Shown: piece after piece, positions 40,907 through 60,992 of the stretch
Layout of the letters: every line of letters starts with the position of its first letter
Position numbering within the stretch: the stretch's first letter is position 1
Assembly: GCA_038063615.1 (NCBI GenBank)
Contig: JBBTUT010000010.1
Span: 12,035 to 73,269 of the forward strand
Length of the DNA: 61,235 bases
Direction: 5' to 3'
Source of the DNA: Patescibacteria group bacterium
Lineage (GTDB): Bacteria > Patescibacteriota > Minisyncoccia > Phycocordibacterales > UBA1550
The notes under the pieces: generated by a model
The model's database searches: none
Told to the model about the DNA's origin: nothing
Seen by the model: the letters and a program-made list of their open reading frames with translations, nothing else
Made by a program: the position numbers and the translations under genes

Positions 40907-40957
40907 TCTGTTTCGTCTTTTCAGACTCATCAGCGCAGACACTCATCTGCGGACAGA
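40907..40957 (-). ncRNA. Type III hammerhead ribozyme (HHR-d)
   Basis: minus strand TCTGTC|CGCAGA-tgagtg-TCTGCG CTGATGA GTCT-GAAA-AGAC GAA ACAGA. Confidence 0.85.
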
Positions 40958-41080
40958 GAGCATTTTTACGCGTGCTCAGTGCGGATGATTTTGTCTCGGT
41001 TCATCAACCGGAGGGCTCTGCTTCCCTTTGGCTCCACATTTTATCATCAAGAAAAAGTGGACAAAGACTCTAGGATTTAG
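40958..41080 (-). repeat. Module M, copy d
   Basis: near-identical to copies a and c. Confidence 0.75.
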
Positions 41081-43854: not shown

Positions 43855-44172
43855 CTAGCAGTGATAGACATCACACCATGGATGTCTGCCTTCGCTAGTA
43901 TATGCAAGCTTCTCTTCGTCGCTTGCATATTTCGCGACCCTAATCTCAAAAGCGGAGTAAAAGAACTCTCCGTCAAGGAGACTTGCCTGCCCATTTACTT
44001 CCACTTCTCTTCCCAATAACTCTGAAAGAGGTGGCAGCTCAGCGTCCCCGTATTCTATGGCGAGATATTTGCCAGTTGGATGGCATTTCATCACCACGCT
44101 ATTCAGGTCTTCGCCTATAATTTTTCCTGAACAATTAAAATCAACCCAACCCTTATCTACTTCTTTTTTCAC
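43855..44172 (-). CDS. Hypothetical protein
   Basis: 105 aa; GTG start; no motif. Confidence 0.5.
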   Translation of the reverse strand: MKKEVDKGWVDFNCSGKIIGEDLNSVVMKCHPTGKYLAIEYGDAELPPLSELLGREVEVNGQASLLDGEFFYSAFEIRVAKYASDEEKLAYTSEGRHPWCDVYHC

Positions 44173-44226
44173 CTCTCTACCCCCATTCGTTTAAAGCCCG
44201 TCGGCTATATTTTTTTGAAAGAACAA

Positions 44227-44294
44227 ATCTCTGCAAGATTTCAAATTATCTCTAACTTAAAATCTTGATAAAGATGGCAAGTTTCTGACTTGCC
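44227..44294 (-). repeat. Double-hairpin module H2+H1, copy 1
   Basis: H1 44227..44275 (atctctgcaagattt...aaatcttgataaagat), H2 44276..44294 (ggcaagt-ttctg-acttgcc). Confidence 0.75.
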
Positions 44295-44358
44295 AAAAAG
44301 TTGACCGCTACTTTAAGGAGTGTTCTTTAAGCAAAACACACAAAGCTGTAAGCTTGTT

Positions 44359-44745
44359 TCACTCTGTATTTGATTTTATCCTGACCGAGTATCCCACTAT
44401 AAGTTCCTTAAATGCCGTTACCATTTTTAAGGAATTATTAGCGACATATTCCCAATCATTTCTCTCTGCTATTAAAGCTTTCACAGCATTGGATAGTCCC
44501 CTGTCCAATTGCTGCTGGCGAGTTTTCGCCAGCAATTCACATAGTGGTGGTGCCATATCTTCGTAAAAAGCTAGCGCAGGATGTTTTAGGACTGGTATTA
44601 CAGTTACCAAGAAAAAATCTAGATCCGAGCGATAATTGTGCTTTGGTATCGATATTTTCTTCAATATTTCCTCTGTTCTTGGCAGTACAGACCCTCCAAA
44701 CTCGTACAAAAAGGCACCACAAACTGCTCCTGCTCCTATTCCCAT
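44359..44745 (-). CDS. Hypothetical protein
   Basis: Trimmed to MGIGAGAVCGAF with AAGGAGG SD. Confidence 0.5.
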   Translation of the reverse strand: MGIGAGAVCGAFLYEFGGSVLPRTEEILKKISIPKHNYRSDLDFFLVTVIPVLKHPALAFYEDMAPPLCELLAKTRQQQLDRGLSNAVKALIAERNDWEYVANNSLKMVTAFKELIVGYSVRIKSNTE

Positions 44746-44808
44746 CTTTCTGCCTCCTTTTTTCAAATTCCTCCGCTATAAAAATAGCGAGGTGAACTTA
44801 CTAGCAGA

Positions 44809-44870
44809 AGGATAGCATATCGCCACATATTTGTCAAGCATTTGACAAAATTAAGAATATGATATATATT
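44809..44870. promoter_or_regulatory. Back-to-back divergent promoters sharing a TTGTCAAgcaTTTGACAA palindrome
   Basis: minus strand TTGACA(44837..44832)-17-TATCCT; plus strand TTGACA(44842..44847)-17-TATATT. Confidence 0.6.
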
Positions 44871-44910
44871 GCACTCAGATATGTTAAATTAAATCAATAA
44901 GGAGGGCAGG

Positions 44911-45108
44911 ATGCACGGAAAAAATAAATTTATAGAGCCATTAAGAGAAACGGTTAAGCGAATCATTGCGGAGCGAAACCATGGGCTAGGATGCATATGC
45001 GATGATTGCCTGATATTTGAGCTTTTAGGTGCTCAAGACGCCAAAGAGCAAACTCCAGGATCGTTTTTGTTGGAACGCAAAGCGGACAACAATACACCGC
45101 TTAATTAA
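44911..45108 (+). CDS. Hypothetical small protein
   Basis: 65 aa; AAGGAGGG SD. Confidence 0.5.
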   Translation: MHGKNKFIEPLRETVKRIIAERNHGLGCICDDCLIFELLGAQDAKEQTPGSFLLERKADNNTPLN

Positions 45109-45974
45109 AGAAAGTGCGGCAAAGAATGTTTCCAGAATCGAGAGGCCTGCTTAAGGCCTCTTTTTTTTATTTCATCTTCCTTTTGTTTTAAAATATCCTG
45201 TATTATGTTGAGTGCTTTTTCAAGTTTTTGAGGAGCGAGAGAATGTTGTGGCTTATTATTTCGAATAAGTTCCTCATTGAGCCTTTTGACAAATAAAAGT
45301 TGGTCTTGAAAATTCTGAACAATTTCCTCGAGGAACCCAAATTGTAATGGATGTGTCGCCTTATCAATGCTTTTATCGGCGATATTCTTGCAAAGCTCCT
45401 CAAGTTGATCTTTCTTTATTTGAACAATTGCACGAGGAATATTTTCTATTGCACCCTTGGTTTTGCTTATTTCAGAATAATAATATTTCAGATCCGTAAG
45501 TTTTCCATCAGATAGTCTCGTTCTTAATGATCTGTATTTATCTTCAAGAACCCCTTGATCTTCTGAAATAGTCAAGTCGATGGCTATTCTCTCAAACGAA
45601 TCATCTTCTTGTGAAATTTCCAATACGAAATCACTACCTCTTTTTATATCATCAAATTCGCTGGTCAAAATGACATTTGTTTCATAGCCAAGCCAACACG
45701 ACCGCTCCCCTTCCTCATAAAAAATCCCCGCCGCAATCAACGCACGCCCATGTTGCTCCCTAAATTTCGGATCTTTTTTAATTCTCTCAATCTCCCTTTT
45801 ATCTTTTTCAATTTCCTCTTTTGAATACAAACCTTCAAAATCCTCCATTTTTGGAGCTTCGACTTTCAGTACGCCATCGACATATTTTTCCATCGCTTTG
45901 TCCTCCGCCATTGTTAACGGAGGTTCTTTGGCTAAAAATTTATTCTCAAAAGCAACATCAGGTCTCATATTCAT
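45105..45974 (-). CDS. Hypothetical protein
   Basis: 289-aa acidic, helical ORF; own promoter (TTGGCA-15-tgaTATACT at 46069..46043). Confidence 0.6.
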   Translation of the reverse strand: MNMRPDVAFENKFLAKEPPLTMAEDKAMEKYVDGVLKVEAPKMEDFEGLYSKEEIEKDKREIERIKKDPKFREQHGRALIAAGIFYEEGERSCWLGYETNVILTSEFDDIKRGSDFVLEISQEDDSFERIAIDLTISEDQGVLEDKYRSLRTRLSDGKLTDLKYYYSEISKTKGAIENIPRAIVQIKKDQLEELCKNIADKSIDKATHPLQFGFLEEIVQNFQDQLLFVKRLNEELIRNNKPQHSLAPQKLEKALNIIQDILKQKEDEIKKRGLKQASRFWKHSLPHFL

Positions 45975-46089
45975 ATAATTAATTTAGTTTAAATGTTCGA
46001 CACTATGCTATCTAAAATCTCATAATCCACACTAGTACTTTCAGTATATCATTTTTGCTGTTGTGCCAAAACTTGCTATGACCCGAGCC

Positions 46090-46122
46090 AAATAAAAAAA
46101 ACGGCACTTTTGAAAAGTGCCG
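46090..46122 (-). terminator. Strong intrinsic terminator ending the long 52.6-to-46.1 kb unit
   Basis: minus strand GGCACTTTT-caa-AAGTGCC then GTTTTTTTTATTT. Confidence 0.8.
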
Positions 46123-46137
46123 CCTCGCAATTGGCTT

Positions 46138-46773
46138 CTATTCTATTTCCACCAATGCTTTTTCGGCAGTATAGCGCTGGATGCCGAGTTCTTTGCGCAT
46201 CTTGCGTATTATGCCGACCGGCTTATCTACGCAATCAGCGATCACGGTATCTGGCATGCGCCCTAGGAATGATTGGATCTTATCTTTCCAACCATCCACA
46301 CCCTCTTCGTGCGGATACGCAATGCCATTTTGTTTGAAAGCGTTTTTGATGCTCCCAAAATGGACGATTGCGGAATGATAGACCGCTGGATGCTTCTTGA
46401 GAAGCTCCTTCGGGCTAAACCCCTCTTTGCCCTTCATCTGGTCCAAGGTCTGTATCGCGCAGTAGAATTTCATCTCTGCGTGACCTATACCGTTCCGGCT
46501 TCTCGCCATTAGGTACGACACGAACCTTGACCCGCATTTCGGGCATCGCGTGGTGTAGTCCCGCGGGTCCTGATTGAACCCGCGAATGATCTCCGCCGGT
46601 GTCAGCGCGCGACCGCATTTCGGGCAATCACCCTTTGGCTTGTATTCTTCGCCACGGAGCTCTTGAATGAGCCCGAGTTTGAGAGCGATTTTATGCTCCG
46701 CCAAAAGCTGTGTTTCCAACACCGTTCGGTGCGTACTCCTGAAGTGGTGCCCTACCCTCAATGTCAATCCCAT
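46138..46773 (-). CDS. Zinc-ribbon protein
   Basis: 211 aa from ATG 46773; CPKCG...CPKCG. Confidence 0.65.
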   Translation of the reverse strand: MGLTLRVGHHFRSTHRTVLETQLLAEHKIALKLGLIQELRGEEYKPKGDCPKCGRALTPAEIIRGFNQDPRDYTTRCPKCGSRFVSYLMARSRNGIGHAEMKFYCAIQTLDQMKGKEGFSPKELLKKHPAVYHSAIVHFGSIKNAFKQNGIAYPHEEGVDGWKDKIQSFLGRMPDTVIADCVDKPVGIIRKMRKELGIQRYTAEKALVEIE

Positions 46774-46925
46774 CACCTCACCTCCTTTTTAATTTGTTTT
46801 TCCCGTTTTCTGCTATACCCCACCAAGCCTTTCTTGCTCGAATGGGCGCCACCACCATGATGACGAAGCTTAAAACAAACTGCCTCCGGAAGTCTCCTCC
46901 CGACTTTCAATCCAACCTTTTTCAT
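46773..46925 (-). CDS. Small basic protein, translationally coupled
   Basis: 50 aa; GGAGGTGGGAGA SD-ATG; stop overlaps the next ATG as TGATG; below the ORF-track size cut-off. Confidence 0.4.
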   Translation of the reverse strand: MKKVGLKVGRRLPEAVCFKLRHHGGGAHSSKKGLVGYSRKREKQIKKEVR

Positions 46926-46967
46926 TCTCCCACCTCCGCTATTTTTTTGGGACTCTTTTTCAAATCC

Positions 46968-47026
46968 CTTTTAGAAATTTCAAAACAAATTTAAAATTTC
47001 TAAAAGAAAGGCAAGTCTTGCTTGCC
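46968..47026 (-). repeat. Double-hairpin module H2+H1, copy 7 (divergent stem sequence)
   Basis: H1 cttttagaaattt-caaaacaaattta-aaatttctaaaag (13 bp perfect); H2 ggcaag-tcttg-cttgcc. Confidence 0.65.
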
Positions 47027-47035
47027 ACATAGCAG

Positions 47036-47209
47036 TTATTTTACATCGTACTCTGCTATTTTATGCTGATAGTCCGGAGATGGACCCCCGGTGCGATCCA
47101 GAGCATCTTGCACGGATTGTTCCGCCTTCTCACGGGAAGAGTACACTTCTACTATCATCCACCCACACCCCATGCAGTTCATCTGCCTTATAAAAACTTT
47201 TTCTACCAT
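47036..47209 (-). CDS. Hypothetical small protein
   Basis: 57 aa from MVEKVFIRQ; GGAGGTG SD. Confidence 0.5.
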   Translation of the reverse strand: MVEKVFIRQMNCMGCGWMIVEVYSSREKAEQSVQDALDRTGGPSPDYQHKIAEYDVK

Positions 47210-47228
47210 ATGCACCTCCACAAACTCA

Positions 47229-47267
47229 AACCCACCTGCCGATTTCTCGGTTCAGGACTTACGGGTC
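47229..47267 (-). promoter_or_regulatory. 5' UTR stem-loop U1, copy b
   Basis: aacccacctgccgatttctcggttcaggacttacgggtc. Confidence 0.7.
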
Positions 47268-47286
47268 GTATTTTTGAAAGAACAAA

Positions 47287-47350
47287 ATCTCTACAGAAGC
47301 ACAACTTGTGTTATGTTTCTGATAAAGACGAGGAGCGGTATTTGCTCCTC
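47287..47350 (-). repeat. Double-hairpin module H2+H1, copy 6 (covarying stem)
   Basis: H1 atctctacagaagc...atgtttctgataaagac; H2 gaggagc-ggtattt-gctcctc. Confidence 0.65.
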
Positions 47351-47357
47351 AAGAAGT

Positions 47358-47633
47358 TCACAGAAAAAATCTTTTGTGAACCCAGCTTGCCGCCAGAACC
47401 ATTGAGACAAGCCAAAGACATGGCCCCATTATGCCCAGTATCATGAACAAAATCATGAAAACAGCCAGCCCAATAAAAGGCAATGGGAAGCCAATCCTGA
47501 AAAAGAACTCATGCCATTCAGGATCATAAAATACCATGAACGGCATACCAAAGAGGTATTTTACTGCCCTCCATCCCAAAAACACGACGGCTACAAATAC
47601 TAAAATACTTAGTAGATTCGTCATCCTCTTCAT
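47358..47633 (-). CDS. Small membrane protein (3 TM)
   Basis: 91 aa from MKRMTNLLSILVF; GGAGGTGG SD. Confidence 0.6.
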   Translation of the reverse strand: MKRMTNLLSILVFVAVVFLGWRAVKYLFGMPFMVFYDPEWHEFFFRIGFPLPFIGLAVFMILFMILGIMGPCLWLVSMVLAASWVHKRFFL

Positions 47634-48030
47634 TCTTCCACCTCCATGCGTTTCCAGTCCGCCGACCATAATTTTGGGATTCTCTTTCAAATCCCTTTCA
47701 AAAAATTCAAGTTGTTAAAATCTTTGAAAGGGAGAGGATGCGATATTTTGCATCCTCTCTGTGCAGTGTCATCTTATATCGCGTAAGATGACTTGGTTGA
47801 GACCCTCGCCTGTGACGATAGATTTTCTGATAGCTAGTCAGAATAATCACACAAGCAACCGGTACGGTCTCACCCATAGGTTTTTTTTGTGAGGTCTAAC
47901 GACCTCATTGAGTTTCCTATAACTCTCTCCGTGACGTACTTTGGGGCTGCACACCCTCCCTGTACCACAACATCTTCCAAAAAAATCATTTCAAAAAGAT
48001 GTTGTGGCGCAGGGAATTTTTAAAAGAACA

Positions 48031-48081
48031 TCTGTTTCGTCTTTTCAGACTCATCAGTCGAGATACACATCTCGAAACAGA
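48031..48081 (-). ncRNA. Type III hammerhead ribozyme (HHR-f)
   Basis: minus strand TCTGTT|TCGAGA-tgtgta-TCTCGA CTGATGA GTCT-GAAA-AGAC GAA ACAGA. Confidence 0.85.
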
Positions 48082-48300
48082 GAGCATTTTTACGCATGCT
48101 CAGTGCGGATGATATTCATTATCGGCGTTGAACTTACCGTGACAAACGCTCAAGTTTGTCAGGCAATAGGTTATTCTCATCAGCTTACCCTATTGCCACC
48201 AATTTTTACCGGACTGGCGCCGTGTCTATGATTTTGTCTCGGTTCATCAACCGGAAGGTTCTGCTCCCTTTAGGCTCTCCATTTTTTAAAACGGGGACAA
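48082..48300 (-). repeat. Module M, copy f, carrying a ~117-nt insertion (48114..48230)
   Basis: flanks match the other copies with compensatory AAGG/CCTT for AGGG/CCCT; the insert holds GGCAATAGG/CCTATTGCC and TGACAAAC/GTTTGTCA hairpins. Confidence 0.7.
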
Positions 48301-48316
48301 ATCAAACTAAGCGTCG

Positions 48317-48979
48317 TTAGTTGCCTAGCTTTTTCTCCCCAAGGAGTTTGGCAAGTATGTCTGCCCAGTCCTTCCCGTGCTGCGAGTAGGCGGTTCCAGT
48401 CCCATTGCAACGGTAGCACCCGTAGGTACCATCCTTGCCGGAGCCGGAACACTTCGCGCAGGTGCCTTGGGTCCCCTCAATACCAACCATGCCAACATAG
48501 TTAGTAAAGAGTGCCTTCGCGTTATGGAGCACGAAAATGGTGTTGTTCATCGCATCGAGCATCGCGCTCGCTGGATGATCGTGATGACCCATGTCGGTCA
48601 CCACCGCAACATACTTCGCGCCGCGAAGTGCCGCAGTGATGGCGAGTGCCCATCCAACAGACATTTCCTTCCCCACATGCTTGAGCCCCTCACCACCTTG
48701 AGTGGCCCGACCTGCTGGCATCAAGAGATCGCAGAGTACGACATCCCAATACGGAAGCCACGACTCTGCCTCAGCCTTCTTGTGTGCCGGCCATGACTCT
48801 ATCCCCTGACTCATGTACTCGGATTTAAGGGTCTTATACTTCTCATTATCCAGCTGTGGTTCAAGAAGCTCGAGCGCTTCGTCATGACTCCCCACAACCG
48901 TAAGGTCATGTAAAGCCCCAAGAACCTGCTGAGCTGAATTCTGGTGGTTTGCGCTGTCGTCGATTACTAATATTTTCAT
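48317..48979 (-). CDS. Receiver-like domain fused to CxxCxGxG zinc fingers
   Basis: 220 aa; MKILVIDDS... REC-like N-terminus; C-terminal CAKCSGSGKDGTYGCYRCNGTG. Confidence 0.7.
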   Translation of the reverse strand: MKILVIDDSANHQNSAQQVLGALHDLTVVGSHDEALELLEPQLDNEKYKTLKSEYMSQGIESWPAHKKAEAESWLPYWDVVLCDLLMPAGRATQGGEGLKHVGKEMSVGWALAITAALRGAKYVAVVTDMGHHDHPASAMLDAMNNTIFVLHNAKALFTNYVGMVGIEGTQGTCAKCSGSGKDGTYGCYRCNGTGTAYSQHGKDWADILAKLLGEKKLGN

Positions 48980-49057
48980 ATTAATCTCCTACCCCTGAAC
49001 CCGAGGTGCAGCTTGCGAAGAATTCGCATTTTTATTTATTTTATTTAAAAGAACAAA

Positions 49058-49122
49058 ATCTCTACAAGATTTCAAACACTCTGTTTAAAATCTTGATAAA
49101 GATGGCAAGTTTCTAACTTGCC
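49058..49122 (-). repeat. Double-hairpin module H2+H1, copy 2
   Basis: H1 49058..49103, H2 49104..49122. Confidence 0.75.
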
Positions 49123-49195
49123 AAAGGTTGACCTCCACCGTAGGAGTGTTCTTTAAGCAAAACACACAAAGCTCTTTTATCCACCTATTTTATTT

Positions 49196-49384
49196 TTATA
49201 TTTCCTCTCCTCCTAAAAACTTCCGCCCGTTACCGTCTGTCGTAATATCACCGATTGGATCTAGACTGAAGCCATTAAGCCTATCGAGAGAAGCTTGGCT
49301 CGCCACTGCTCCTTTTACTGCGAGAATGGCAAAAAATTTCTCGATATCCTCCACTTCTTCAACCTGCTCTTTTTTCTCGTTCAC
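49196..49384 (-). CDS. Hypothetical small acidic protein
   Basis: 62 aa from GTG 49384 with AAAGGAGGTG SD; the track ORF extends in frame into module M, taken as fortuitous. Confidence 0.45.
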   Translation of the reverse strand: MNEKKEQVEEVEDIEKFFAILAVKGAVASQASLDRLNGFSLDPIGDITTDGNGRKFLGGEEI

Positions 49385-49420
49385 TATCTTTCTCACCTCC
49401 TTTTTGTTTTTAACGGTCCC

Positions 49421-49512
49421 GACATTTTGTCTCGGTGTGTCAACCGGAGGGCTCTGCTTCCCTTTGGCTCCACATTTTATCATCAAGAAAAATGTGGATA
49501 AAAACTCTAGAC
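49421..49512 (-). repeat. Module M, copy h (subtype 2, no hammerhead attached)
   Basis: matches 50528..50626; CGGT-tgacac-ACCG replaces CGGTT-gatg-AACCG. Confidence 0.7.
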
Positions 49513-49527
49513 TATATTGATTACTTT

Positions 49528-50037
49528 CTACACAGGAGACATGTGTTTGAGAATATTCCTAGTTTTCTCTGAATAAACTTCTTTCTCAATGAATGTATTC
49601 ATCTTGTCCCTAGAGAAACGATCAATTTTAATCTTTTTTCTCAAATCAAAACTTGTCTCATTGTCTTCTAAGAAAACAAACTCTACTGCAAACCCATTGT
49701 TCTCCATCTCTGTGGCAAGATCCAGAGCGAACTCTTCCGCTTTGTTTTTTAATTCCCGCCAGTCTTCCTTGGTTGCTTCAGAATTCTCTTTTTCAGAAGC
49801 AAATATCCACCCGTCAGACACATTTACTTTAGCAAAACCAGAATGCTCTTTGCGTGAATTTTCCCTATATTTATAAGGGCCCCACGAAAATAATCCTTCT
49901 GCGCTAATTGTAACTATGTAAGCTGGGTAATATTTCCAATAACGATTTGCATCCCAATGCCAATCTCCGTGCGTACCCAAATAACCCTGAACTGTTTTTA
50001 CCACCGAAACCAGAACTTTCTTTACTCCATCCACCAT
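49528..50037 (-). CDS. Hypothetical protein
   Basis: 169 aa; GAGGAGGGGGAG SD; no motif. Confidence 0.6.
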   Translation of the reverse strand: MVDGVKKVLVSVVKTVQGYLGTHGDWHWDANRYWKYYPAYIVTISAEGLFSWGPYKYRENSRKEHSGFAKVNVSDGWIFASEKENSEATKEDWRELKNKAEEFALDLATEMENNGFAVEFVFLEDNETSFDLRKKIKIDRFSRDKMNTFIEKEVYSEKTRNILKHMSPV

Positions 50038-50088
50038 TTCTCCCCCTCCTCGTTTCGAGCCCGTCGGCTATTTTTTTGAAAGAACAAA

Positions 50089-50157
50089 TCTCTACAAGAT
50101 TTCAAACACTCTGTTTAAAATCTTGATAAAGATGAGGAGCGATGCTGCCGCTCCTCA
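50089..50157 (-). repeat. Double-hairpin module H2+H1, copy 3
   Basis: H1 50089..50134, H2 gaggagcg-atgctgc-cgctcctc. Confidence 0.75.
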
Positions 50158-50458
50158 AAGACAGATGGGAACAAGGTCCCTTTTTAATAATTTGTTTTGT
50201 CGGCGTCCCAACAAACACAAATTATCGTCAAGCATTCTGTCAAAATGCTTTCGCTGAGTTGATGCCTTCTATGGCATCTAAAGGTCTCATCAGCTTAACC
50301 TTACAACGATGGATTTCGTCAGCACCCATCCCTAATACTGGTGTCTCCTACTCCTTGCAGTAGGGATCACCTGCCAAATTTTTCCGCGACTGGACATTTG
50401 TCGCAACCTTAATCGCCTTTTAATTCAAGGGGTAAGGGACGGATTGTTGAAAGAACTT
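50158..50458 (-). ncRNA. About 300-nt hairpin-rich non-coding spacer
   Basis: no credible minus-strand ORF (the 73-aa plus-strand track ORF 50142..50363 is judged spurious); 19-bp GATAATTTGTGTTTGTTGG/CCGACAAAACAAATTATT helix, AAGCATT/AATGCTT and GATGCC/GGCATC hairpins, loop GGTtaagctgatgagACC. Confidence 0.45.
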
Positions 50459-50509
50459 TCTGTTTCGTCTTTTCAGACTCATCAGCGCAGATACGCATCT
50501 GCGGACAGA
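50459..50509 (-). ncRNA. Type III hammerhead ribozyme (HHR-g)
   Basis: minus strand TCTGTC|CGCAGA-tgcgta-TCTGCG CTGATGA GTCT-GAAA-AGAC GAA ACAGA. Confidence 0.85.
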
Positions 50510-50626
50510 GAGAACGCGGTTTTTGTCGCGGTCTCGACATTTTGTCTCGGTGTGTCAACCGGAGGGCTCTGCTTCCCTTGGGCTCCACATTTTATCATCA
50601 AGAAAAAGTGGACAAAAACTCTAGGA
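50510..50626 (-). repeat. Module M, copy g (subtype 2)
   Basis: hairpin next to the ribozyme replaced by GAGACCGCG/CGCGTTCTC; the rest matches the family. Confidence 0.7.
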
Positions 50627-50642
50627 TAGGTAGACGGGCGGC

Positions 50643-50879
50643 TTATTCCCAGCCAGACTGGAGAGGTCCGATGCGGCGCCGAGCTTTACCCTTTTCGCCC
50701 CTTAGAAGGATATAAATTCCTCCCTCGGGAGCAAGGATAAGTTGCGCCCCCTTCAGCTCCTCGTTGTGCCCCTCACTACGCCTCTCTCTAAGCTCCTTGT
50801 ATTGCCGAGCGGTGAGAGATACGCTTGAGCCGTCTTTCCCCTGAACCAAAACCTTGTCCCTGATGATTACTCTTTTCAT
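50643..50879 (-). CDS. Hypothetical small protein
   Basis: 78 aa from MKRVIIRDK; TAGGAGG SD. Confidence 0.55.
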   Translation of the reverse strand: MKRVIIRDKVLVQGKDGSSVSLTARQYKELRERRSEGHNEELKGAQLILAPEGGIYILLRGEKGKARRRIGPLQSGWE

Positions 50880-50899
50880 ACATCCTCCTAAAATTTCAG

Positions 50900-50937
50900 A
50901 ACCCACCTGCCGATTGCTCGGTTCAGGATTTACGGTT
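50900..50937 (-). promoter_or_regulatory. 5' UTR stem-loop U1, copy c
   Basis: aacccacctgccgattgctcggttcaggatttacggtt. Confidence 0.7.
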
Positions 50938-50958
50938 CATATTTTTTGAAAGAACAAA

Positions 50959-51025
50959 ATCTCTACAAGATTTCAAACACTTTGTTTAAAATCTTGATAA
51001 AGATGGGGAGCAGGTTTTGCTCCCC
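50959..51025 (-). repeat. Double-hairpin module H2+H1, copy 4
   Basis: H1 50959..51004, H2 ggggagca-ggtttt-gctcccc; followed to 51058 by a shared ccaatataattgcaaca.ccgtttcggctgagaattt segment. Confidence 0.75.
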
Positions 51026-51235
51026 AATATAATTGCAACAACCGTTTCGGCTGAGAATTTTTGAATGGGCGTTGTTTTCCTCGAGATATCAACGACCGCC
51101 CCCCCCCTTCACTTTCTCGATAAGCTAGCGCTTTTATTTTGTATCGGGAAGCGAATCCTCCGATATCAGCGGTTTCTGTTGCCATGCAATCCGCTCCCTG
51201 CCCCGTCTCCATTAAGGTGCAGTTTCCCCTAATTT

Positions 51236-51547
51236 CTATGTTTCTTTAGTATCTTCTGAAAAATGACCGCTTTCACTCTTTATGACATAAGTGAAGGTTT
51301 TGCCATTATCAGAAATACCTTTCGGAAACATCCTCCCGCGGATAAAAGTCTCGTCAAGAACTTTTCGGGGTGAGTTTTTGCCGTTAAGGACATATATAGT
51401 ATCATGCCCCGAGCCTCCGCTAGAGTTTTGTATGCCAATGACAGCAATGTCTGCGTCTTTGGCAATATACAAATCTGTGCTTGACCGGCTACTCCGAAGT
51501 CCTTCACGAACTTTTTCCGCGTGTTTTTGGAAGTCCTTACTTGCCAT
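51236..51547 (-). CDS. Hypothetical protein
   Basis: 103 aa; GAAGGAGG SD. Confidence 0.55.
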   Translation of the reverse strand: MASKDFQKHAEKVREGLRSSRSSTDLYIAKDADIAVIGIQNSSGGSGHDTIYVLNGKNSPRKVLDETFIRGRMFPKGISDNGKTFTYVIKSESGHFSEDTKET

Positions 51548-51625
51548 ATTTTTACCTCCTTCGTGTTTGAATCTGAATGAACACGGTCATTCACCGTTTG
51601 GGGTTATCCCTATGCAGTCCTTGCG

Positions 51626-51922
51626 TTAGCTGGCTTTTGCCACAGCCGGTCTTTTGTCACCCTTGCGGACGACTTTGACCTGCCGGGCAAAAGCCTCAAG
51701 GAACGGCTTCAATCTGCCGATCTCTGCATTGCGCTTGGCGACCTCGTTCAGAGACGCCCCGAGCTCATACATCGGTATGAACTTTTTCTGAGCGCGCGCC
51801 TCCTTCCCGAGGTTGTATCGGCAAGACCCGCAGATGGGCTTGACCACCCATTCACCCTTTTCCTTTTTCAAGGGAAGAGCAAACTGTGGTTTCTCCCCGC
51901 CACAAACTGTACATGTATGCAT
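51626..51922 (-). CDS. Small zinc-ribbon protein
   Basis: 98 aa from MHTCTVCGG...ICGSCRYN; first gene after the long leader. Confidence 0.6.
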   Translation of the reverse strand: MHTCTVCGGEKPQFALPLKKEKGEWVVKPICGSCRYNLGKEARAQKKFIPMYELGASLNEVAKRNAEIGRLKPFLEAFARQVKVVRKGDKRPAVAKAS

Positions 51923-51942
51923 AATAACCTCCATAATTTCAG

Positions 51943-51980
51943 AACCCCCCTGCCGATTTCTCGGTTCAGGATTTACGGTT
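51943..51980 (-). promoter_or_regulatory. 5' UTR stem-loop U1, copy d
   Basis: aacccccctgccgatttctcggttcaggatttacggtt. Confidence 0.7.
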
Positions 51981-52003
51981 CATATTTTTTTTGAAAGAAC
52001 TAA

Positions 52004-52072
52004 ATCTCTACAAGATTTCAAATTATTTCTAACTTAAAATCTTGATAAAGATGAGGAGCGGTTTTGCTCCCC
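52004..52072 (-). repeat. Double-hairpin module H2+H1, copy 5
   Basis: H1 52004..52052 (long-loop subtype as in copy 1), H2 52053..52072. Confidence 0.75.
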
Positions 52073-52578
52073 AATATAATTGCAACAGCCGTTTCGGCTG
52101 AGAATTTTCGCGTACATTTGGCATGGGCACTAACTCGTATCAATCTACCGTCTGGGGATCAACCAGATCGGTGATTGCTTACTTGCTAGTGTTTCTGTTC
52201 ACCATGCCGTTCTCTTTTTGCCAATCCACCCCGCTAAGAGTGTTGGCGCCCAGAGTCAGGACCAATAGATGCAAGGTAGGGCATCTATTACATTTCCTTA
52301 TTAAGACCTATTTTCTCGTCTCTTAATAAGGATTTCCGTCTTTCACGCCCCATGAGGACGAGGAACAGGTTGGGCTATAGCGAGCCCTCAAAACAGATTT
52401 GAATGTGCAACTTCAATCTCACGCAAACGCGAGGGACTTTGGGGCGAGAGTTTCGCCTGAAACTCCCCCGTATTGCGTGAGATCGTTAGGTTTCTTTCAA
52501 GGCACTGTTCGAGTCGCGGCCAATGTAAATAATTAAATGCCGGCTGTGGAATGTGTCACTCGCTATCAACTTAACTTT
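52073..52578 (-). ncRNA. Long structured leader RNA downstream of the 52.6-kb promoter
   Basis: no credible minus-strand ORF (the 67-aa plus-strand track ORF 52123..52326 is judged spurious); perfect hairpins CCTTATTAAGA/TCTTAATAAGG, AATAGATGC/GCATCTATT, ATCTCACGCAA/TTGCGTGAGAT, GGCATGG/CCATGCC. Confidence 0.5.
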
Positions 52579-52586
52579 CTGAGGGT

Positions 52587-52614
52587 ATTATAGCAAACCT
52601 GCAGGATTTGTCAA
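52587..52614 (-). promoter_or_regulatory. Consensus sigma-70 promoter driving the 52.6-to-46.1 kb unit
   Basis: minus strand TTGACA(52614..52609)-16 nt-TATAAT(52592..52587). Confidence 0.7.
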
Positions 52615-52761
52615 GCACTTCTGACATTTCATCTCCATCTCGTACTCAAATATGTTGTAAAATAAGGGTTTTTGCCGTTTCTTATTGTTATTTAGTTTGT
52701 ACAAAATGGCACTATGCGAACACAAAAAACAATAGTGTCAAAGTATTCTTGTTAATGGTGC

Positions 52762-52790
52762 TTGACAAAAGGAAAGCAATTTGCTACACT
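52762..52790 (+). promoter_or_regulatory. Sigma-70 promoter of a candidate plus-strand sRNA
   Basis: TTGACA-17 nt-TACACT. Confidence 0.6.
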
Positions 52791-52796
52791 CATGTT

Positions 52797-53108
52797 AGAA
52801 AGGTTTGGATTGTCCAAATCTAGGGCTTCTAAAAAGGAGGTGACCCATGCACGGATAACTCTCCACCAAAAGGTTCTCGACAAGAGATTCTTTTGATGGA
52901 GGGTTCTCTGCAAGCAATGGTAAGCCGAATGGACAGAATACCCAAAAAAGAAAGGAGGTGGGACAGATGTGGGGTTAGAGAATGAAAAAAAGCAATTTTT
53001 TTTGCGGTAGGTAAAGTTGGCGCTTTGCAAGTTAGCATAGCTAACACGAAAGCGCCGAAGTAGGTAGCGCCGAGTCGGGGATATTCTATTCCCCGGCTTT
53101 TTTTTGTT
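52797..53108 (+). ncRNA. Candidate ~300-nt sRNA with two perfect SD sequences followed by 3-codon mini-ORFs
   Basis: AAAAAGGAGGTGaccc-ATG CAC GGA TAA (52847..52858); AAAGGAGGTGggacag-ATG TGG GGT TAG (52967..52978); ends at GTCGGGGA-tattcta-TCCCCGGC + T8, which overlaps the 3' end of the convergent TrmB-like gene. Confidence 0.45.
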
Positions 53109-53865
53109 CTTTTTGTGCCTGAGCCCCTATTTTTGCGAGCTTTATTAAAGTTTTGAGAGTATCCGCGACATCTCGGCTTTGGATGAAGATGCTGGAAATA
53201 CGCTTGCCGAGCGTTACAAACTGAACACGGTCTTCATATACGGAAAGGTCACATTTGATAGGAAAATCTTTTGCGTCGACGCGAGTTCGGTCACTCAAGC
53301 TATCACTTGGCAATTCTTGTTTTGAATAATTGTAAACTGAAACAGCTTTGATCTTTCGCGCGGGACGATCTTTTGCAATGGTCTCTATTTCTCTTTGCGA
53401 AAAAGCTTCTTCTATCAGGTCGCGGTTGAACGCAAAATACCCCGTGTCTTCTTTGGATTCGTTCCCGGACGGAAAGAATGCGAGACTATCATGAAATGCC
53501 GCCTCTTTGCCATCAAAATATTTAAGGACCGGTCGTTCCCCTAGCTCTCGTTGAACACTCTTCATTTGCGGAATGATGTCTTTGAGGCGCTTCGCCGTCT
53601 CTCCGAGGATAAGCTGCTGCCTCTCCACAAAAGTCTCCAACCTCTCCGGCGGCTCCGCCGCATAATGCGTCTTCTTCCCAATCTCAACCTCTGAAACCAA
53701 TCCTTTTTTCGCAAGTGTTTCAAGCACAACATACACCGTAGGGCGTTTGATCTTTGTCTTCTCGGCAATGTCCACAACAGAAGCAGAGTCCACCTGCAAA
53801 AGCGCCAAATACACCCCCGCCTCCTTTTCATTCAACCCGATCTCTTGGAGATATTTTTCAAGCAT
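53086..53865 (-). CDS. TrmB-family transcriptional regulator
   Basis: 259 aa; MLEKYLQEIGLNEKEAGVYLALLQ... wHTH. Confidence 0.8.
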   Translation of the reverse strand: MLEKYLQEIGLNEKEAGVYLALLQVDSASVVDIAEKTKIKRPTVYVVLETLAKKGLVSEVEIGKKTHYAAEPPERLETFVERQQLILGETAKRLKDIIPQMKSVQRELGERPVLKYFDGKEAAFHDSLAFFPSGNESKEDTGYFAFNRDLIEEAFSQREIETIAKDRPARKIKAVSVYNYSKQELPSDSLSDRTRVDAKDFPIKCDLSVYEDRVQFVTLGKRISSIFIQSRDVADTLKTLIKLAKIGAQAQKEQKKAGE

Positions 53866-53872
53866 AAAATTA

Positions 53873-54694
53873 TTATTTTAATTTCTTCATTGTCGGATTA
53901 TTTGAAAGTGATTTCATTTGAGTTATTGCTATCGCATTTAGTCTCAGAAGTCTCTCTTTTTGCTCCAAACCTTGGCGGATAAATTCTGCGTTTAACGATT
54001 CGAGGTTTGCCAAGCACACGAGCTGTGTCACATCCGCATAGTCACGCATATTCCCCTCTTTGTTTTTATTTTTTGACTTCCAGTCTTGTGCGGCTATGCC
54101 AAACAAAGCCATATTCAAAACATCCGCCTCGTTTGCATATACAATCGTGGCGTCTTTAACAGACAATTTTTGTGGCAATACGATATTTTCTTTTATGGAA
54201 TCCGTATGGATTTTATAATTGATTTTGGTGAGCATCCGCTTTGCATCCCAGCCCAAAATAAGCCTCTCGTTTTCCTCTACTTTGAGCCTCTGGAATTCTT
54301 TGATCAAATACAACTTAAACTCCGGAGATATCCATGTGGCAAATTCAAAAGCAATATCTTTATGTGCAAAAGTTCCTCCCCCGTAGCGCCCTGATTTATT
54401 TATCATTCCAACAGCCCCCACTGCCTCAATCCACCTCTTTGGCGTAAGGGAAAAGCTGTTGGAGCCGGCTTTGTTTTTAAACCCATCGAATTCGATGGGT
54501 TTAAAATTTTGGTTGTTTATCTTCTCCCAAATGCCCAAAAATTCAACGGTGTCCATCGTACGCATCCAGTTTTGGATGATATAATCGGTCCTTTCACTGT
54601 CTTTATATTTTGCAATATCAGTCAACGAAATATAATCATTTTCGTTCCGCTGAAATGTATATATTTGTAACCCCCGTGCATTTATTTTTTTCAT
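53873..54694 (-). CDS. KilA-N domain-containing protein
   Basis: 273 aa; N-terminal pattern ([11 protein letters not shown]..., [29 protein letters not shown]) typical of KilA-N. Confidence 0.7.
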
Positions 54695-54766
54695 AAGATA
54701 TTTTATAAGTATGCTTGTATTGTATCACGCGCTTGCATCTCGACAAAGGTATGGTACAGTAGCCGT

Positions 54767-55363
54767 ATGTCATATTTAATACCAACCGTTATCGAGAAAA
54801 CGACGCAGGGTGAGCGCGCGTACGATATTTATTCGCGATTGCTCAAGGAACGCATTGTTTTTCTTACCGGAACGATTGACGATGATTCGGCAAATATTGC
54901 CATCGCCCAACTTCTTTTTCTTGAGTCTGAGGATCCAAAAAAAGACATTTGCCTGTATATCAACTCGCACGGCGGCTCAGTAACCGCAGGCCTTGCTCTC
55001 TACGACACAATGCAACATGTGAAGCCAGATATTTCAACAATTTGTGTCGGGATGGCGGCATCAATGGGCGCAGTGATTCTTTCTGCCGGAGCAAAAGGCA
55101 AACGATTCATTCTTCCGAACGCAGAAGTAATGATCCATCAGCCGCTTGGAGGGACCGAGGGGCAGGCGTCAGACATCGCCATCACTGCAAAACATATTTT
55201 GAAAACAAAGGAGAACCTGAACAAGATACTTTCGAAAAATACCGGTAAACCTCTCGCACAAATAGAAAAAGACACCGACCGCGACTTCTTTATGTCCGCC
55301 GACGAAGCAAAAAAATACGGCATCGTAGACGAAATCTACAAACCAAAGAATCCCCGCGCGTAA
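54767..55363 (+). CDS. clpP: ATP-dependent Clp protease proteolytic subunit
   Basis: 198 aa; [14 protein letters not shown] active-site Ser region, MIHQPLGG. Confidence 0.97.
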
Positions 55364-55369
55364 AGCGCA

Positions 55370-55461
55370 AGTCAAAAGTCTGTAAAGTCCTTAAGGTCAA
55401 AAGTGGGAGCATTTGCACCCGCTGACTTTAAGGACTTTCGACTTTATAGACTTTTAGACTT
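55370..55461. repeat. Long heptamer-word hairpin after clpP (likely terminator)
   Basis: gtcaaaagtctgtaaagtccttaaggtcaaaagtggg ... cccgctgactttaaggactttcgactttatagacttttagac. Confidence 0.65.
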
Positions 55462-55588
55462 ATTAGCGGTAATATGAACGAGTTCCTCTTAAAAATTTAA
55501 ATTGACACCTTTTAACAACAGTAACCGCTCGCAGATCTGGAGAAAATCCCTTGTTTTCAAGGGTTTCAAGGCTTGGCGGGTTTAGAAT

Positions 55589-57121
55589 ATGGACATTAAC
55601 ATTGCACTCACCCTCGGCGGGGTGATGGCTATATCGGTCGGTGTGGCACTCGGCTACCTTTTGCGCTGGTTTATTTCGATAAGCAAGCGCGGATCGATCG
55701 AGCTCGAGGTCAAGCAAGTGCTCCTCTCCGCAAAGGAAGAAGCGCAGAAGATCATCGAGGAAGCCGATCAGAAAGCCGAAGTATACGAAAGAGAACTCCA
55801 CAAAAAAGAAAAAGAGAGCGATGATCGTTTCAAGAAAACCGAGGATCGCCTCATCAAAAAAGAAGAATTCCTCGACAAACGCCAGACCGACATCGACAGC
55901 GAGGTCGCGCATATAAAAGAAAAGGTCGAGGAGGTCAAAGAGATCCGCGAAAAAGCAAATAAGGAAAAAGAACTCGCCGTCCGCGAGCTCGAGCGCATCG
56001 CGCGCCTCGAGGCACCTGAAGCAAAAGAAGAGCTCTTGAAGCGCACGGAAAAGCGCTATGAAGAAGACCTCCTGGCGCGGATGAAAAAACTCGAAGGTGA
56101 GGGAGAAGAGCGACTCTCTCAAAAGGCGCGGGATATCCTCGCCTCATCGATCCAGCGCCTCGCGACATCGACCGCGGCGGAAATGATGGCGACGACCGTC
56201 CCTCTGCCTTCCGACGAGATCAAGGGAAAGATCATCGGCAAAGAAGGTCGCAATATCCGCGCGTTTGAGCGCACGGCGGGAGTGGAAGTCATCGTTGATG
56301 ATACGCCGGGCTCTATTCTCATTTCATCGTTCGACCCGATTCGCCGACAAATAGCGCGTGTGGCGCTCGAAGCCCTCATCGCCGATGGGCGTATTCAGCC
56401 GGCAAAGATCGAGGAGATGGTGGAAAAAGCGCGCGAAGATGTGAACAAGATCATCAAAGAAGAAGGCGAGCGAGCGGCGTACGAATGCGGAGTTTTCAAC
56501 TTGGACCCGCGCATCATCGCCATTTTGGGTCGCCTTCATTTCCGCACCAGCTATGGGCAGAATGTGCTTCAGCACTCGGTGGAAATGGCGCACATTGCGG
56601 GGATGATAGCCGAAGAAGTCGGGGCAAATGTAGCGGTGGCGAAAGCGGGAGCGCTCCTCCACGACCTCGGCAAAGCCGTCGACCACGAAGTGGCGGGCAC
56701 CCATGTGGAGATCGGCAAGAGAATTCTTCAAAAATTCGGCGCAGACACGCGCATCATTCAGGCGATGCAGTCGCACCACGAGGAATACCCATATGAAACG
56801 CTGGAGTCCATCATCGTGCAGACCGCGGATGCCATTTCCGGCAGTCGCCCAGGTGCGCGCCGAGATTCAGCAGAAAACTACATCAAGCGCCTCGAAGACC
56901 TCGAGGGAATAGCAAAATCCTTCCCCACCGTCGAAAAAACCTATGCAATACAAGCAGGAAGGGAGCTTCGCGTCTTTGTGAAGCCGGAAGAAATCACCGA
57001 CCTTGAAGCAAAAAACCTCGCCCGCGAGATCGCGCTCCGCATAGAAAAAGAGCTCAAGTACCCGGGCGAAATAAAAGTCGCCGTCATCCGCGAATCGCGC
57101 GCGATAGAGTACGCGAGATAA
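55589..57121 (+). CDS. rny: Ribonuclease Y
   Basis: 510 aa; N-terminal TM, coiled coil, KH (GKIIGKEGRNIRAFE), HD domain. Confidence 0.95.
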   Translation: MDINIALTLGGVMAISVGVALGYLLRWFISISKRGSIELEVKQVLLSAKEEAQKIIEEADQKAEVYERELHKKEKESDDRFKKTEDRLIKKEEFLDKRQTDIDSEVAHIKEKVEEVKEIREKANKEKELAVRELERIARLEAPEAKEELLKRTEKRYEEDLLARMKKLEGEGEERLSQKARDILASSIQRLATSTAAEMMATTVPLPSDEIKGKIIGKEGRNIRAFERTAGVEVIVDDTPGSILISSFDPIRRQIARVALEALIADGRIQPAKIEEMVEKAREDVNKIIKEEGERAAYECGVFNLDPRIIAILGRLHFRTSYGQNVLQHSVEMAHIAGMIAEEVGANVAVAKAGALLHDLGKAVDHEVAGTHVEIGKRILQKFGADTRIIQAMQSHHEEYPYETLESIIVQTADAISGSRPGARRDSAENYIKRLEDLEGIAKSFPTVEKTYAIQAGRELRVFVKPEEITDLEAKNLAREIALRIEKELKYPGEIKVAVIRESRAIEYAR

Positions 57122-60056: not shown

Positions 60057-60992
60057 ATGTCGCAAAATATTCCCGCTACCACGCTCGGCTCGTTTGCACG
60101 ACAATTTCTCGAGTATTTGGAGATCGAGCGCGGACGAAGCTTGAAAACTATTCAAAACTACGAGCACTACCTCACGCGCTTTCTCTCTGCGAGCGGGGCA
60201 AAAGAGCCGGGTGATATTACCGACGAGGTGATGCGCTCATTTCGCTTGTGGCTCAACCGCCAAGAAGCGGGCGTGCGCGAGGGTCGCAATACGACACTCA
60301 AAAAGAAAACGCAGAACTACTATCTCATCGCGATTCGCAGTTTCCTCAAATATTTGCGTAAACGCGGTATTGAATCATACGCTCCCGAGCGCATTGAGCT
60401 TGCAAAGGTTGCCGAACGCACAATCGACCTTTTGAGCCCGCAAGATTTGCGCCGACTTCTTTCCGCGCCCGACGGCGACACGGTAAAAGCGCTCCGCGAC
60501 AAAGCGATTCTCGAACTTTTCTTTTCCACCGGACTTCGCCTCTCCGAACTATGTTCGCTTTCTCGCGACATTGACCTTTCGCGCGATGAAATATCCGTGC
60601 GGGGCAAAGGCGAAAAGGTGCGCGTGGTCTTTATTTCCGACGATGCCAAAACTGCGATTACCGCATATTTAAAAAAGAGAACAGATATGGACGATGCGCT
60701 TTTCGTGCAAGAGAGCAGGAACACAAGCAAAGACGGCTCCATCCGCCTCACTCCACGCTCCATCGAAAGAATGGTGAAGCACTATGCCACCAAGGCGGGC
60801 ATTATGGACAAAGTCACTCCCCACATCCTCCGCCACAGCTTCGCCACCGACCTCCTCTACAACGGCGCCGACATCCGCTCCGTACAAATAATGCTCGGCC
60901 ACGCCAACATTTCCACCACGCAGATCTACACCCATGTGACAGATAGTGAGCTACGCAATGTTCACAAGAAATTTCACAGCAAGGGGCGGTAA
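60057..60992 (+). CDS. Tyrosine recombinase, XerC/XerD-like
   Basis: 311 aa; HILRHSFATDLL...GHANISTTQIYTHV catalytic region. Confidence 0.9.
   Translation: MSQNIPATTLGSFARQFLEYLEIERGRSLKTIQNYEHYLTRFLSASGAKEPGDITDEVMRSFRLWLNRQEAGVREGRNTTLKKKTQNYYLIAIRSFLKYLRKRGIESYAPERIELAKVAERTIDLLSPQDLRRLLSAPDGDTVKALRDKAILELFFSTGLRLSELCSLSRDIDLSRDEISVRGKGEKVRVVFISDDAKTAITAYLKKRTDMDDALFVQESRNTSKDGSIRLTPRSIERMVKHYATKAGIMDKVTPHILRHSFATDLLYNGADIRSVQIMLGHANISTTQIYTHVTDSELRNVHKKFHSKGR

Follow-up and report, generated by a model that had tools for sequence, protein, structure and literature searches.

Why should a bacterium with a genome of 751 kb place some 650 nucleotides (nt) of untranslated RNA between a consensus promoter and the first gene behind it? 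The question is raised by a stretch of 61,235 nt (the window, to which all plain coordinates refer) from an ultra-small groundwater member of the Candidate Phyla Radiation (CPR, or Patescibacteria), the genome of which is assembled in 28 contigs and is 95% complete. The RNA, referred to here as the leader, runs on the minus strand from the promoter to gene 1 (51935–52614), and the sequence downstream of it is an island of small ORFan genes on the same strand, with almost no Pfam matches, in which repeated RNA modules and five type III hammerheads separate the genes. A preliminary description had proposed either a large non-coding RNA (ncRNA) or a sensor that controls the 6.5-kb unit. The explanation that best fits the evidence, although it is held tentatively, is that the RNA is a structured leader, probably removed by cleavage, of a polycistronic transcript that is processed and continues into this island of small gene cassettes.

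The promoter is as strong as first described. The TTGACA hexamer (52614–52609) is followed by a 16-nt spacer with a TG at -15/-14 and by TATAAT (52592–52587), which is the sole 12/12 match in the 12 kb scanned (44000–56000), where the chance expectation, by our own composition estimate, is ~0.04 sites in the whole window. The site fits the strong-promoter consensus of the genome, GCTTGACAAA-N11-TGCTATAMT, and its spacer carries the near-palindrome AAATCCTGCAGGTTT. At the proposed start of gene 1, GGAGG is placed 5 nt before the ATG (51922–51920). Elsewhere in the genome, consensus promoters lead to an untranslated region (UTR) of 40–60 nt that ends in a Shine-Dalgarno (SD) sequence, and a leader of 650 nt is atypical.

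The intervening sequence does not appear to encode a protein, given that stops occur in all three sense frames, and neither a six-frame reading nor a scan of the leader for SD-preceded open reading frames (ORFs) recovered any of at least 12 amino acids. The comparison of the leader with the genome by tblastx returned nothing, and the possibility of a protein-coding gene or pseudogene was rejected, with neither an open frame nor translated similarity to sustain it. The search for known RNAs was also negative. Rfam 15, including the large families OLE, GOLLD, ROOL, HEARO, and raiA, the riboswitches, and twister, pistol, hatchet, and HDV, matches nothing in 51935–52614 at the gathering score, and a permissive scan (E up to 10) recovered only chance-level fragments of microRNAs, small RNAs, and transfer-messenger RNA (tmRNA), either outside the leader or below threshold. 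No hammerhead (RF00008) or other known ribozyme was found in the leader by these scans, which recovered only tRNAs and hammerheads from the window and from the relatives and loci of the family. The non-repeated 470 nt of the leader were compared by BLAST with 41 relatives and ~400 genomes of the order, which returned no homolog, only promoter look-alikes, and no homolog of the leader was found in a phage collection, or in IMG/VR when searched with the module pattern described below. A pattern scan of metagenomes provided the sole syntenic relative, the contig L066.

The leader is, in addition, heavily folded. Its minimum free energy (MFE) is -237 kcal/mol, in comparison with ~-170 for dinucleotide shuffles (z -8.0 and -7.8). 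When MFE was regressed on GC content over all the 470-nt windows of the 61 kb, a ranking that replaced sliding z-scores from 12 shuffles, which were too noisy, the segment 51936–52405 was the most over-folded for its GC content (rank 1 of 259), while the non-repeated part, 52113–52582, ranked 17 of 259. The perfect hairpins noted at the outset were all recovered, with stems of 12 bp (52295–52306/52321–52332), 11 bp (52416–52426/52473–52483), 9 bp (52264–52272/52281–52289), and 7 bp (52448–52454/52459–52465), together with the GGCAUGG/CCAUGCC closing helix, which is 7 bp long (52120–52126/52202–52208). The folding is also asymmetric between the strands: the terminal module reaches -59.2 kcal/mol in the sense direction (z -7.1) and -40.4 in the antisense (z -2.0), and the hairpin zone has a z of -3.8 in the sense and -1.6 in the antisense direction. 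In L066, the hairpin zone has a different sequence, and the values are -4.2 and -2.5, with a z of -11.75 for the whole leader; the structure of the sense strand is kept, even though the sequence has been swapped between the relatives. These findings support the view that the leader is untranslated, that the strong promoter in front of it looks genuine, and that selection has acted on RNA structure in the transcribed strand. To this extent the original proposal stands, although the leader is not one coherent ncRNA family, given the lack of an Rfam match or of any homolog of the 470 nt in the ~400 genomes of the order, and the fact that ~240 nt are replaceable.

The same evidence bears on the notion of a non-functional spacer, that is, a decayed cassette remnant that is rich in palindromes by happenstance. 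This would be in keeping with the absence of homologs outside a single relative and with the replaceable ~240 nt, but 650 nt are exceptional in a 751-kb genome with UTRs of 40–60 nt, the unrelated replacement in L066 is once again dense in hairpins on the sense strand, and three perfect stems of at least 9 bp are present, where ~0.09 would be expected by chance in 470 nt (our own estimate). A mere spacer is, then, most improbable.

The leader is a composite (Table 1). Its 5' portion is specific to it, and comprises block 1 (52582–52400), with two stem-loops, A and B, and a variable hairpin zone that contains GGGCUCGCUAUAGCCC (52390–52375), a 12-bp hairpin (52332–52295), a 9-bp hairpin (52289–52264), and smaller ones. 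Its 3' 180–270 nt are a generic intercistronic module, formed by domain D, the hairpins H0, H2, and H1, the junction GUUCUUUCAA, and the stem-loop U1, with a run of A between the last two, and this module is also present before gene 3. The 3' end of the leader (52108–51928) recurs at 51061–50884 with 91% identity, and shorter recurrences are found at 50141–50071, 49104–49037, 47352–47214, 44276–44210, and 37512–37448. The copies of H2, H1, and U1 that had been noted at the end of the leader are all present. The relationship proposed between D and a ~170-nt segment at 51058–51190 is less clear: a similar closing helix is found in the same position, but the likeness in sequence is weak, amounting to a common 17-nt motif, GCAUGG-n-AACAGAAAC, the score of which was reached by 9 of 300 shuffles. 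This segment (D', at ~51190–51070), which also lies ahead of an H0, may be interpreted as a paralog of D that has degenerated.

When all the junctions of the island are anchored on GUUCUUUCAA, this sequence is seen to be preceded either by a type III hammerhead (...CGAAACAGA-nn-GUUCUUUCAA) or by H1 (...UAGAGAU-nn-GUUCUUUCAA), and the terminal module of the leader occupies the position equivalent to that of a hammerhead. Sub-threshold type III hammerheads are also found in two metagenome contigs, at L051:1371–1425 and L052:796–850 (45.3 and 38.2 bits), where they alternate with H2-H1 on one strand, followed by GUUCUUU or GUUCAUU. In the H1 of the leader, the 7 bp at the base, AUCUUUA/UAGAGAU, are conserved and include one U-G pair; above them are a bulged U, a distal stem of 15 bp that varies, and a GAAA loop. 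The family to which it belongs can be defined as a GC-rich hairpin that abuts a hairpin with this base and a bulged U, followed by 2–3 nt and GUUCUUU, upstream of an SD sequence.

A covariance model of H2-H1-GUUCUUU (R2), built partly from the copies in the window, recovered six copies in the host genome (G000), all in this island, with 66–80 bits; the copy in the leader scores 71.8 bits (E 1.5e-13; G000:C10:64025–64114, equivalent to 51991–52080), a match that is expected by construction. Independent support is provided by the covariation among 29 members from outside the window. Over 35 sequences, 13 of the 24 pairs show compensatory changes, in H2 and the distal stem of H1, while the U-G pair of the base is invariant, an invariance that is partly forced by the search pattern. 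The signature of H1 and the junction was found in 15 contigs from the genomes of GTDB species and ~20 from metagenomes, all of CPR bacteria, with a few chance matches in non-CPR genomes, and among the lineages represented are Saccharibacteria, Moraniibacteria, Paceibacterota, Kaiserbacteria, Yonathbacteria, and Parcubacteria. The R2 matches, present in four of the 150 genomes of the class that were sampled, include diverged members with a covarying basal stem, as well as four copies arrayed within 1.7 kb. In many CPR lineages, the motif typically ends 20–25 nt upstream of the SD-ATG of small ORFs, and these ORFs show no relationship to one another across loci. The H2-H1 motif is an undescribed RNA family that is scattered through the CPR bacteria and absent from Rfam 15. 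A promoter inside the module was considered and rejected, as no -35/-10 is conserved across the family.

The preferred reading brings these elements together in a single pathway. From the strong promoter, RNA polymerase would make one long RNA, probably under the control of the adjacent TrmB-type regulator, a control suggested by the near-palindrome in the spacer and by the retention in L066 of both the helix-turn-helix (HTH) domain and the promoter region. Each cassette boundary would then be cut by a type III hammerhead or at H2-H1, where H1 could either be cleaved by RNase III or be self-cleaving. Once the first boundary is cut, a leader RNA of ~530–590 nt would be detached, and the mRNA of gene 1 would begin with the U1 hairpin and retain only a short 5' UTR, while the load of hairpins would shield the untranslated RNA from nucleases. 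The size of H1 (7 + 15 bp, with one bulged U) is that of an RNase III site, which has ~20 bp and often an internal irregularity, and the other members have 17–22 bp; an RNase III gene is present at G000:C2:32138–32530 (PF14622, 127.6 bits), and the genome also encodes RNase Y. Two related ideas fared less well. The avoidance of Rho as a reason for the hairpins is weakened by the fact that no Rho gene was found in the 95%-complete genome, and the formation of RNA circles by RtcB was rejected, given that no RtcB gene was found.

The early region of phage T7 may be the closest known analog of this unit. As Dunn and Studier reportedly described it, the strong host promoters A1–A3 are followed by a leader of ~400 nt, the first gene is preceded by an RNase III site, R0.3, and the early genes are separated from one another by RNase III hairpins. 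The element described here resembles it in having a strong sigma-70 promoter, a long untranslated leader, and a putative processing hairpin just before the first small gene, with related hairpins, also with internal irregularities, between the later genes, which would likewise stabilize the cut RNAs. It differs in being chromosomal in a CPR bacterium, with no phage structural genes seen, in having a leader packed with extra hairpins, and in the use of hammerheads at some of the junctions. In addition, the base of the hairpin and the GUUCUUU are conserved in sequence here across phylum-level CPR lineages, and the cleavage is predicted. Operons punctuated by hammerheads (RF00008) were reportedly described by Perreault et al. 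in 2011 from prophage-like and CPR variable islands; the island here has five such type III hammerheads on one strand, with the module of the leader in an equivalent position, although the boundary element of the leader is an undescribed pair of hairpins.

A number of points weigh against the processed leader. Transcription, cleavage, and the role of the released RNA are inferred only, from the sequence. The sequence specificity of RNase III is slight, so that this enzyme alone does not account for the GUUCUUU or for the invariance of AUCUUUA/UAGAGAU at the base of H1; the conservation of both could instead reflect self-cleavage or a protein dedicated to the task. With 90–100% identity in L066, the blocks of the leader that are retained there are no more conserved than the genomic background (88–96%). 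This reading also provides no explanation for the length of 650 nt, which includes ~370 leader-specific nt, in comparison with the normal UTRs of 40–60 nt. Finally, transcription could terminate at H2 and its U-rich tail, in which case the leader would be an RNA separate from the genes behind it.

In this last case, the product would be a free-standing ncRNA of ~535 nt that ends at H2 (the hairpin and AUCUUUAUC) and has a trans function of its own, possibly through the pairing of the 9-mer UUGAAAGAA with UUCUUUCAA before the ribosome-binding regions of the cassettes. The terminator-like flag on H2 is consistent with this, but the U-tract behind it is poor (5 U in 9), whereas the true terminators of the genome have U runs; the Us of its tail, UCUUUAUCAA, are interrupted, and the tail bases pair into H1. 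Furthermore, copies of H2 are also present between promoterless genes. The 9-mer (52500–52492), which forms part of stem-loop A, has one copy on the sense strand in 61 kb, with its complement UUCUUUCAA at eight junctions; the MFE fold pairs it with the junction of the leader itself, which closes the leader, and a single A-to-G change in L066 keeps the pairing as G-U. The energy of the duplex (9 bp, AU-rich, ~-9 kcal/mol) is within the range of the best chance duplexes upstream of other members of the family (-5.4 to -11), and this pairing, whether as a closure in cis or an action in trans, is treated here only as a hypothesis. The same type of promoter precedes hairpin-dense RNAs of 660–700 nt, without ORFs and with strong terminators, in three other CPR genomes, but these share no sequence with the leader, ~240 nt of which can be replaced. 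On balance, a separate ncRNA is unlikely, although it is the likeliest of the rivals.

The promoter type of these RNAs is GCTTGACAAATCCTGTAGGTATGCTATAMT, and they are found in L010 (G260:C1 ~810–1508, minus strand), L013 (G090:C2 ~1530–2190), and L020 (G324:C1 ~1536–2210), in the housekeeping neighborhoods of three other CPR families, with z from -4.8 to -10. They have no Rfam or tmRNA match, and were rejected as homologs of the leader, given their lack of similarity to it or to each other.

The leader can be examined further in the comparison with L066, a syntenic 19.9-kb contig from Hainich groundwater, which has ClpP, TrmB, and the same promoter (with TATACT as the -10), leader, and module. 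The background identity between the two is 96% in ClpP, where 19 of 199 third codon positions have changed, 95.6% in RNase Y, and 88–96% in other segments. The promoter and the overall architecture are kept, but the hairpin zone, the interior of domain D, and the first genes have been swapped. At identities of ~50% (Table 1), the segments concerned are effectively unrelated, and ~240 nt of the leader are thus freely replaceable between two close relatives, with the flanks of D conserved. Genes 1 and 2 are unrelated in L066, yet the 61 nt between them (51554–51614) are 100% identical, and the intergenic pieces behave as a conserved backbone, with the genes as exchangeable cargo. The TrmB gene (53086–53865, and L066:11326–12096) is divided in the same manner, with a third-position divergence of ~13% at its ends and 50–67% across codons 61–240, which correspond to the effector domain, in comparison with a genomic background near 10%. 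The proteins are 81% identical, with an almost invariant HTH domain, and this TrmB-like regulator is, from its pattern of divergence, a recombination mosaic.

Replacement of this kind, in the hairpin zone, the interior of D, genes 1 and 2, and the effector domain of TrmB, between genomes that are 4–10% diverged, suggests a DNA-level element, in which the hairpins and junctions are recombination sites or palindromic insertions, either integron/attC-like or MITE-like (miniature inverted-repeat transposable elements), and the leader is one or two cassettes without ORFs. The persistence of junction sequences at 94–100% identity, including the 61-nt intergenic piece, the location of a strong promoter at one end of a promoterless ORFan array, and the sporadic occurrence among CPR genomes (the four of 150 mentioned above) agree with this. 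Integron cassette arrays share the end promoter, the promoterless ORFan cassettes, the imperfect boundary hairpins with variable centers, and the replacement of cassettes between relatives. They differ in the core sequence, the folding strand, and the adjacency of the integrase, all of which fail here. The cores of attC are RYYYAAC and GTTRRRY, and it is the bottom strand that folds, whereas the GTTCTTT of the junction has pyrimidines where purines are required, and it is in the mRNA-sense orientation, with U-G pairs that do not vary, that H1, the hairpin zone, and the module are the more stably folded. No integron integrase adjoins the array, the neighbors of which are TrmB and KilA-N, and the nearest tyrosine recombinase (60057–60992) is separated from it by 7.4 kb, with ClpP, RNase Y, and HU in between. 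The hammerheads at equivalent positions point to RNA, and the hairpins of the leader have no further copies in the genome. A DNA-level element is, on this evidence, rather improbable.

Block 1 would have the leading role if the leader were a cis-acting regulator of the whole 6.5-kb unit, either as a riboswitch-like sensor or as a processive antitermination element, similar to put or EAR, that allows the hairpins to be read through. It lies directly behind the promoter and is retained in L066, where all the predicted pairs survive the ~14 substitutions, although this is weak support, given that the structure was predicted from the same two sequences. In stem-loop B, an outer stem of 11–13 bp encloses a GC-rich inner hairpin with two alternative registers, and L066 has only one change in a bulge and one from GU to GC. 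The unit as a whole contains 30 terminator-like hairpins, where 12 would be expected. Processive antitermination RNAs are found in operon leaders, such as the put of HK022 and the EAR of Bacillus, and the leader resembles these in having two stem-loops soon after the strong promoter of a long, hairpin-rich operon, but shares neither sequence nor an Rfam match with them, even at E up to 10. Moreover, both registers of stem-loop B are nested in the same outer stem, so that switching would have no obvious output, the SD sequence is 450 nt away and unpaired, the searches returned no homolog outside a single close relative, in which the first genes are different, and no Rho gene was found.

The conservation of block 1 was initially taken as purifying selection, an interpretation that has been withdrawn, given that ClpP, RNase Y, and the ends of TrmB show a background divergence of only 4–13%. 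Its identity is that of the genomic background, and no purifying selection is claimed from identity, because the leader blocks match the genome-wide level. Regulation in cis by the leader is quite improbable, and no positive evidence emerged for the ligand sensor of the preliminary description: the first genes differ in the relatives, the MFE fold leaves the SD sequence free, and there is no sign of a terminator/antiterminator pair. The adjacent TrmB-type regulator is a more conventional candidate for a sensor than the leader RNA.

The processed leader has a wider context in a multi-helix RNA of ~215 nt, of which H2-H1 forms the 3' third, and which is found in many CPR genomes (Saccharibacteria, Moraniibacteria, Paceibacterota, and others), for example at L025:2001–2227, L024:4059–4286, and L022:3319–3548 (alignments A5 and A6; models R1 and R2). 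This RNA, which matches no Rfam family, is always located directly upstream of variable small ORFs. Its 5' GGGAC pairs with GUUCU to close the domain, and its 5' domain includes the helices P2–P5, the loop AUAAAAGACUGAAA, and a hairpin, GGUAG...CUACC. In the curated 5' domain (R1, 25 pairs), 92.9% of the cells are paired, in comparison with 33–41% when the partners are slid, nine pairs have changed on both sides, and the covariation score was reached by none of 500 shuffles. With the filters off, R1 found no full match to the 5' domain in 35–55 kb of the window, the best local match being at 52353–52326 (10.7 bits, E ~0.03), and nhmmer with the ~215-nt RNA matched the window only at positions 143–228 of the profile. 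The leader was rejected as a carrier of the 5' domain, and is not considered a member of the ~215-nt RNA because of this R1 result; only the 3' unit is common to the two. The local match involves a hairpin of the minus strand, AUGGGGCGUGAAAGACGGAAAUCCUUAU (52326–52353), that resembles the P3 loop (AAAGAC-n-GAAA), and may be a remnant or the product of chance.

The leader and the ~215-nt RNA share the H2-H1-GUUCUUU 3' unit and its position before the SD-ATG of variable small ORFs, and the UUGAAAGAA of the leader could play the closing role of GGGAC. The leader differs in having domain D, H0, and ~370 further nt in place of the covarying 5' domain. It is possible to envisage a new class of CPR RNA, of which the leader would be an enlarged representative, in which a purine-rich 5' strand and GUUCUUU(CAA) would close a multi-helix domain that ends in H2-H1, H2-H1 would be self-cleaving or self-processing, either alone or together with its 5' domain, and do the work of the hammerheads, and the released RNA of ~0.55 kb would act in trans on the junctions through the 9-mer, as a master regulator of the processing or translation of the cassette mRNAs, although this is a speculative view of very low probability.

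Table 1. Features of the leader and its surroundings, with positions in the window and identity with the contig L066.
Feature	Position	Strand	Evidence or remark	Identity with L066
Sigma-70-type promoter, TTGACA-16-TATAAT, extended -10 TG	52587..52614	-	Sequence, genome consensus, L066	
Promoters				93.6%
Block 1				90.4%
Block 1, stem-loop A, three-tier	52485..52575	-	Predicted folds	
Block 1, stem-loop B, 72-nt extended hairpin	52413..52484	-	Folds, inverted repeats	
Variable hairpin zone, 185 nt, four or five short hairpins	52215..52399	-	Folds, inverted repeats	50.5%
Domain D, closing helix GGCAUGG/CCAUGCC, motif GCAUGGUGAACAGAAAC	52120..52208	-	z -6.5, inverted repeat	
Domain D, 5' strand				92%
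Domain D, interior				51%
Segment 52134-52113	52134-52113			100%
Module				93.8%
H0 hairpin CAGCCGAAACGGCUG, then linker UUGCAAUUAUAUU	52086..52100	-	No difference from L066 or from the copy at 51061	100%
H2, GC-rich hairpin, then AUCUUUAUC	52053..52073	-	Terminator-like in loose scan; stem covaries (GC, AU, CG swaps)	
H1, 22-bp hairpin	52004..52052	-	R2 71.8 bits; fold; covariation	
Junction GUUCUUUCAA	51991..52000	-	Common to type III hammerheads in the island and in other genomes	
U1 stem-loop, GAACC...CCGA-GAAA-UCGG...GGUUC	51942..51981	-	Between junction and SD; four island copies	
SD GGAGG (51932-51928) and ATG (51922-51920) of gene 1	51920..51932	-	Sequence	
Gene 1, 98-aa Cys4 zinc-ribbon protein with basic tail, ORFan	51626..51922	-	Swapped for an unrelated ORF in L066	
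Type III hammerhead	50457-50511	-	Rfam model RF00008	
Type III hammerhead	48029-48083	-	Rfam model RF00008	
Type III hammerhead	40905-40959	-	Rfam model RF00008	
Type III hammerhead, core A-to-U change	38868-38922	-	Rfam model RF00008	
Type III hammerhead	37511-37565	-	Rfam model RF00008	
TrmB-family regulator	53086-53865	-	Directly upstream of leader; candidate protein regulator of the promoter	
KilA-N protein	53873-54694	-	Upstream of leader, between ClpP and TrmB	
ClpP	54767-55363	+	Right of leader	
RNase Y	55589-57121	+	Right of leader; Pfam RNase_Y_N, KH, HD	

The surroundings of the leader provide some additional observations. HU, a tRNA-Gly, and a Xer-type recombinase are also found to the right of it. 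The KilA-N gene is not present in L066, and this absence marks a recent insertion or deletion at the edge of the island. No homologs of gene 1 were found in the family genomes. A divergent strong promoter (52762–52790, plus strand) lies 150 bp from that of the leader, with an RNA that runs onward to ~53100 and contains a three-codon ORF behind a perfect SD sequence, in a region that is 84–100% identical in L066. Elsewhere in the genome, at G000:C9 ~61990–62071 (minus strand), the heptamer GTCAGTT is repeated six times in tandem behind a site that resembles a promoter, and directly ahead of the apparent 5' end of a tRNA gene.

The genomes of the CPR bacteria are tiny and tightly packed, and 650 nt of promoter-driven non-coding RNA are costly and should do something. 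The case links a strong promoter and a large folded RNA, cassette islands punctuated by hammerheads, and an undescribed hairpin-pair motif. Its evolution is unusual, with hairpin content that is kept while the sequence is replaced wholesale, between genomes that differ by 4–10% elsewhere. Should the motif prove to be a site of processing or a new ribozyme, it would offer a testable handle on the expression of the fast-changing ORFan cassettes, and on the purpose of the bacterial hammerheads.

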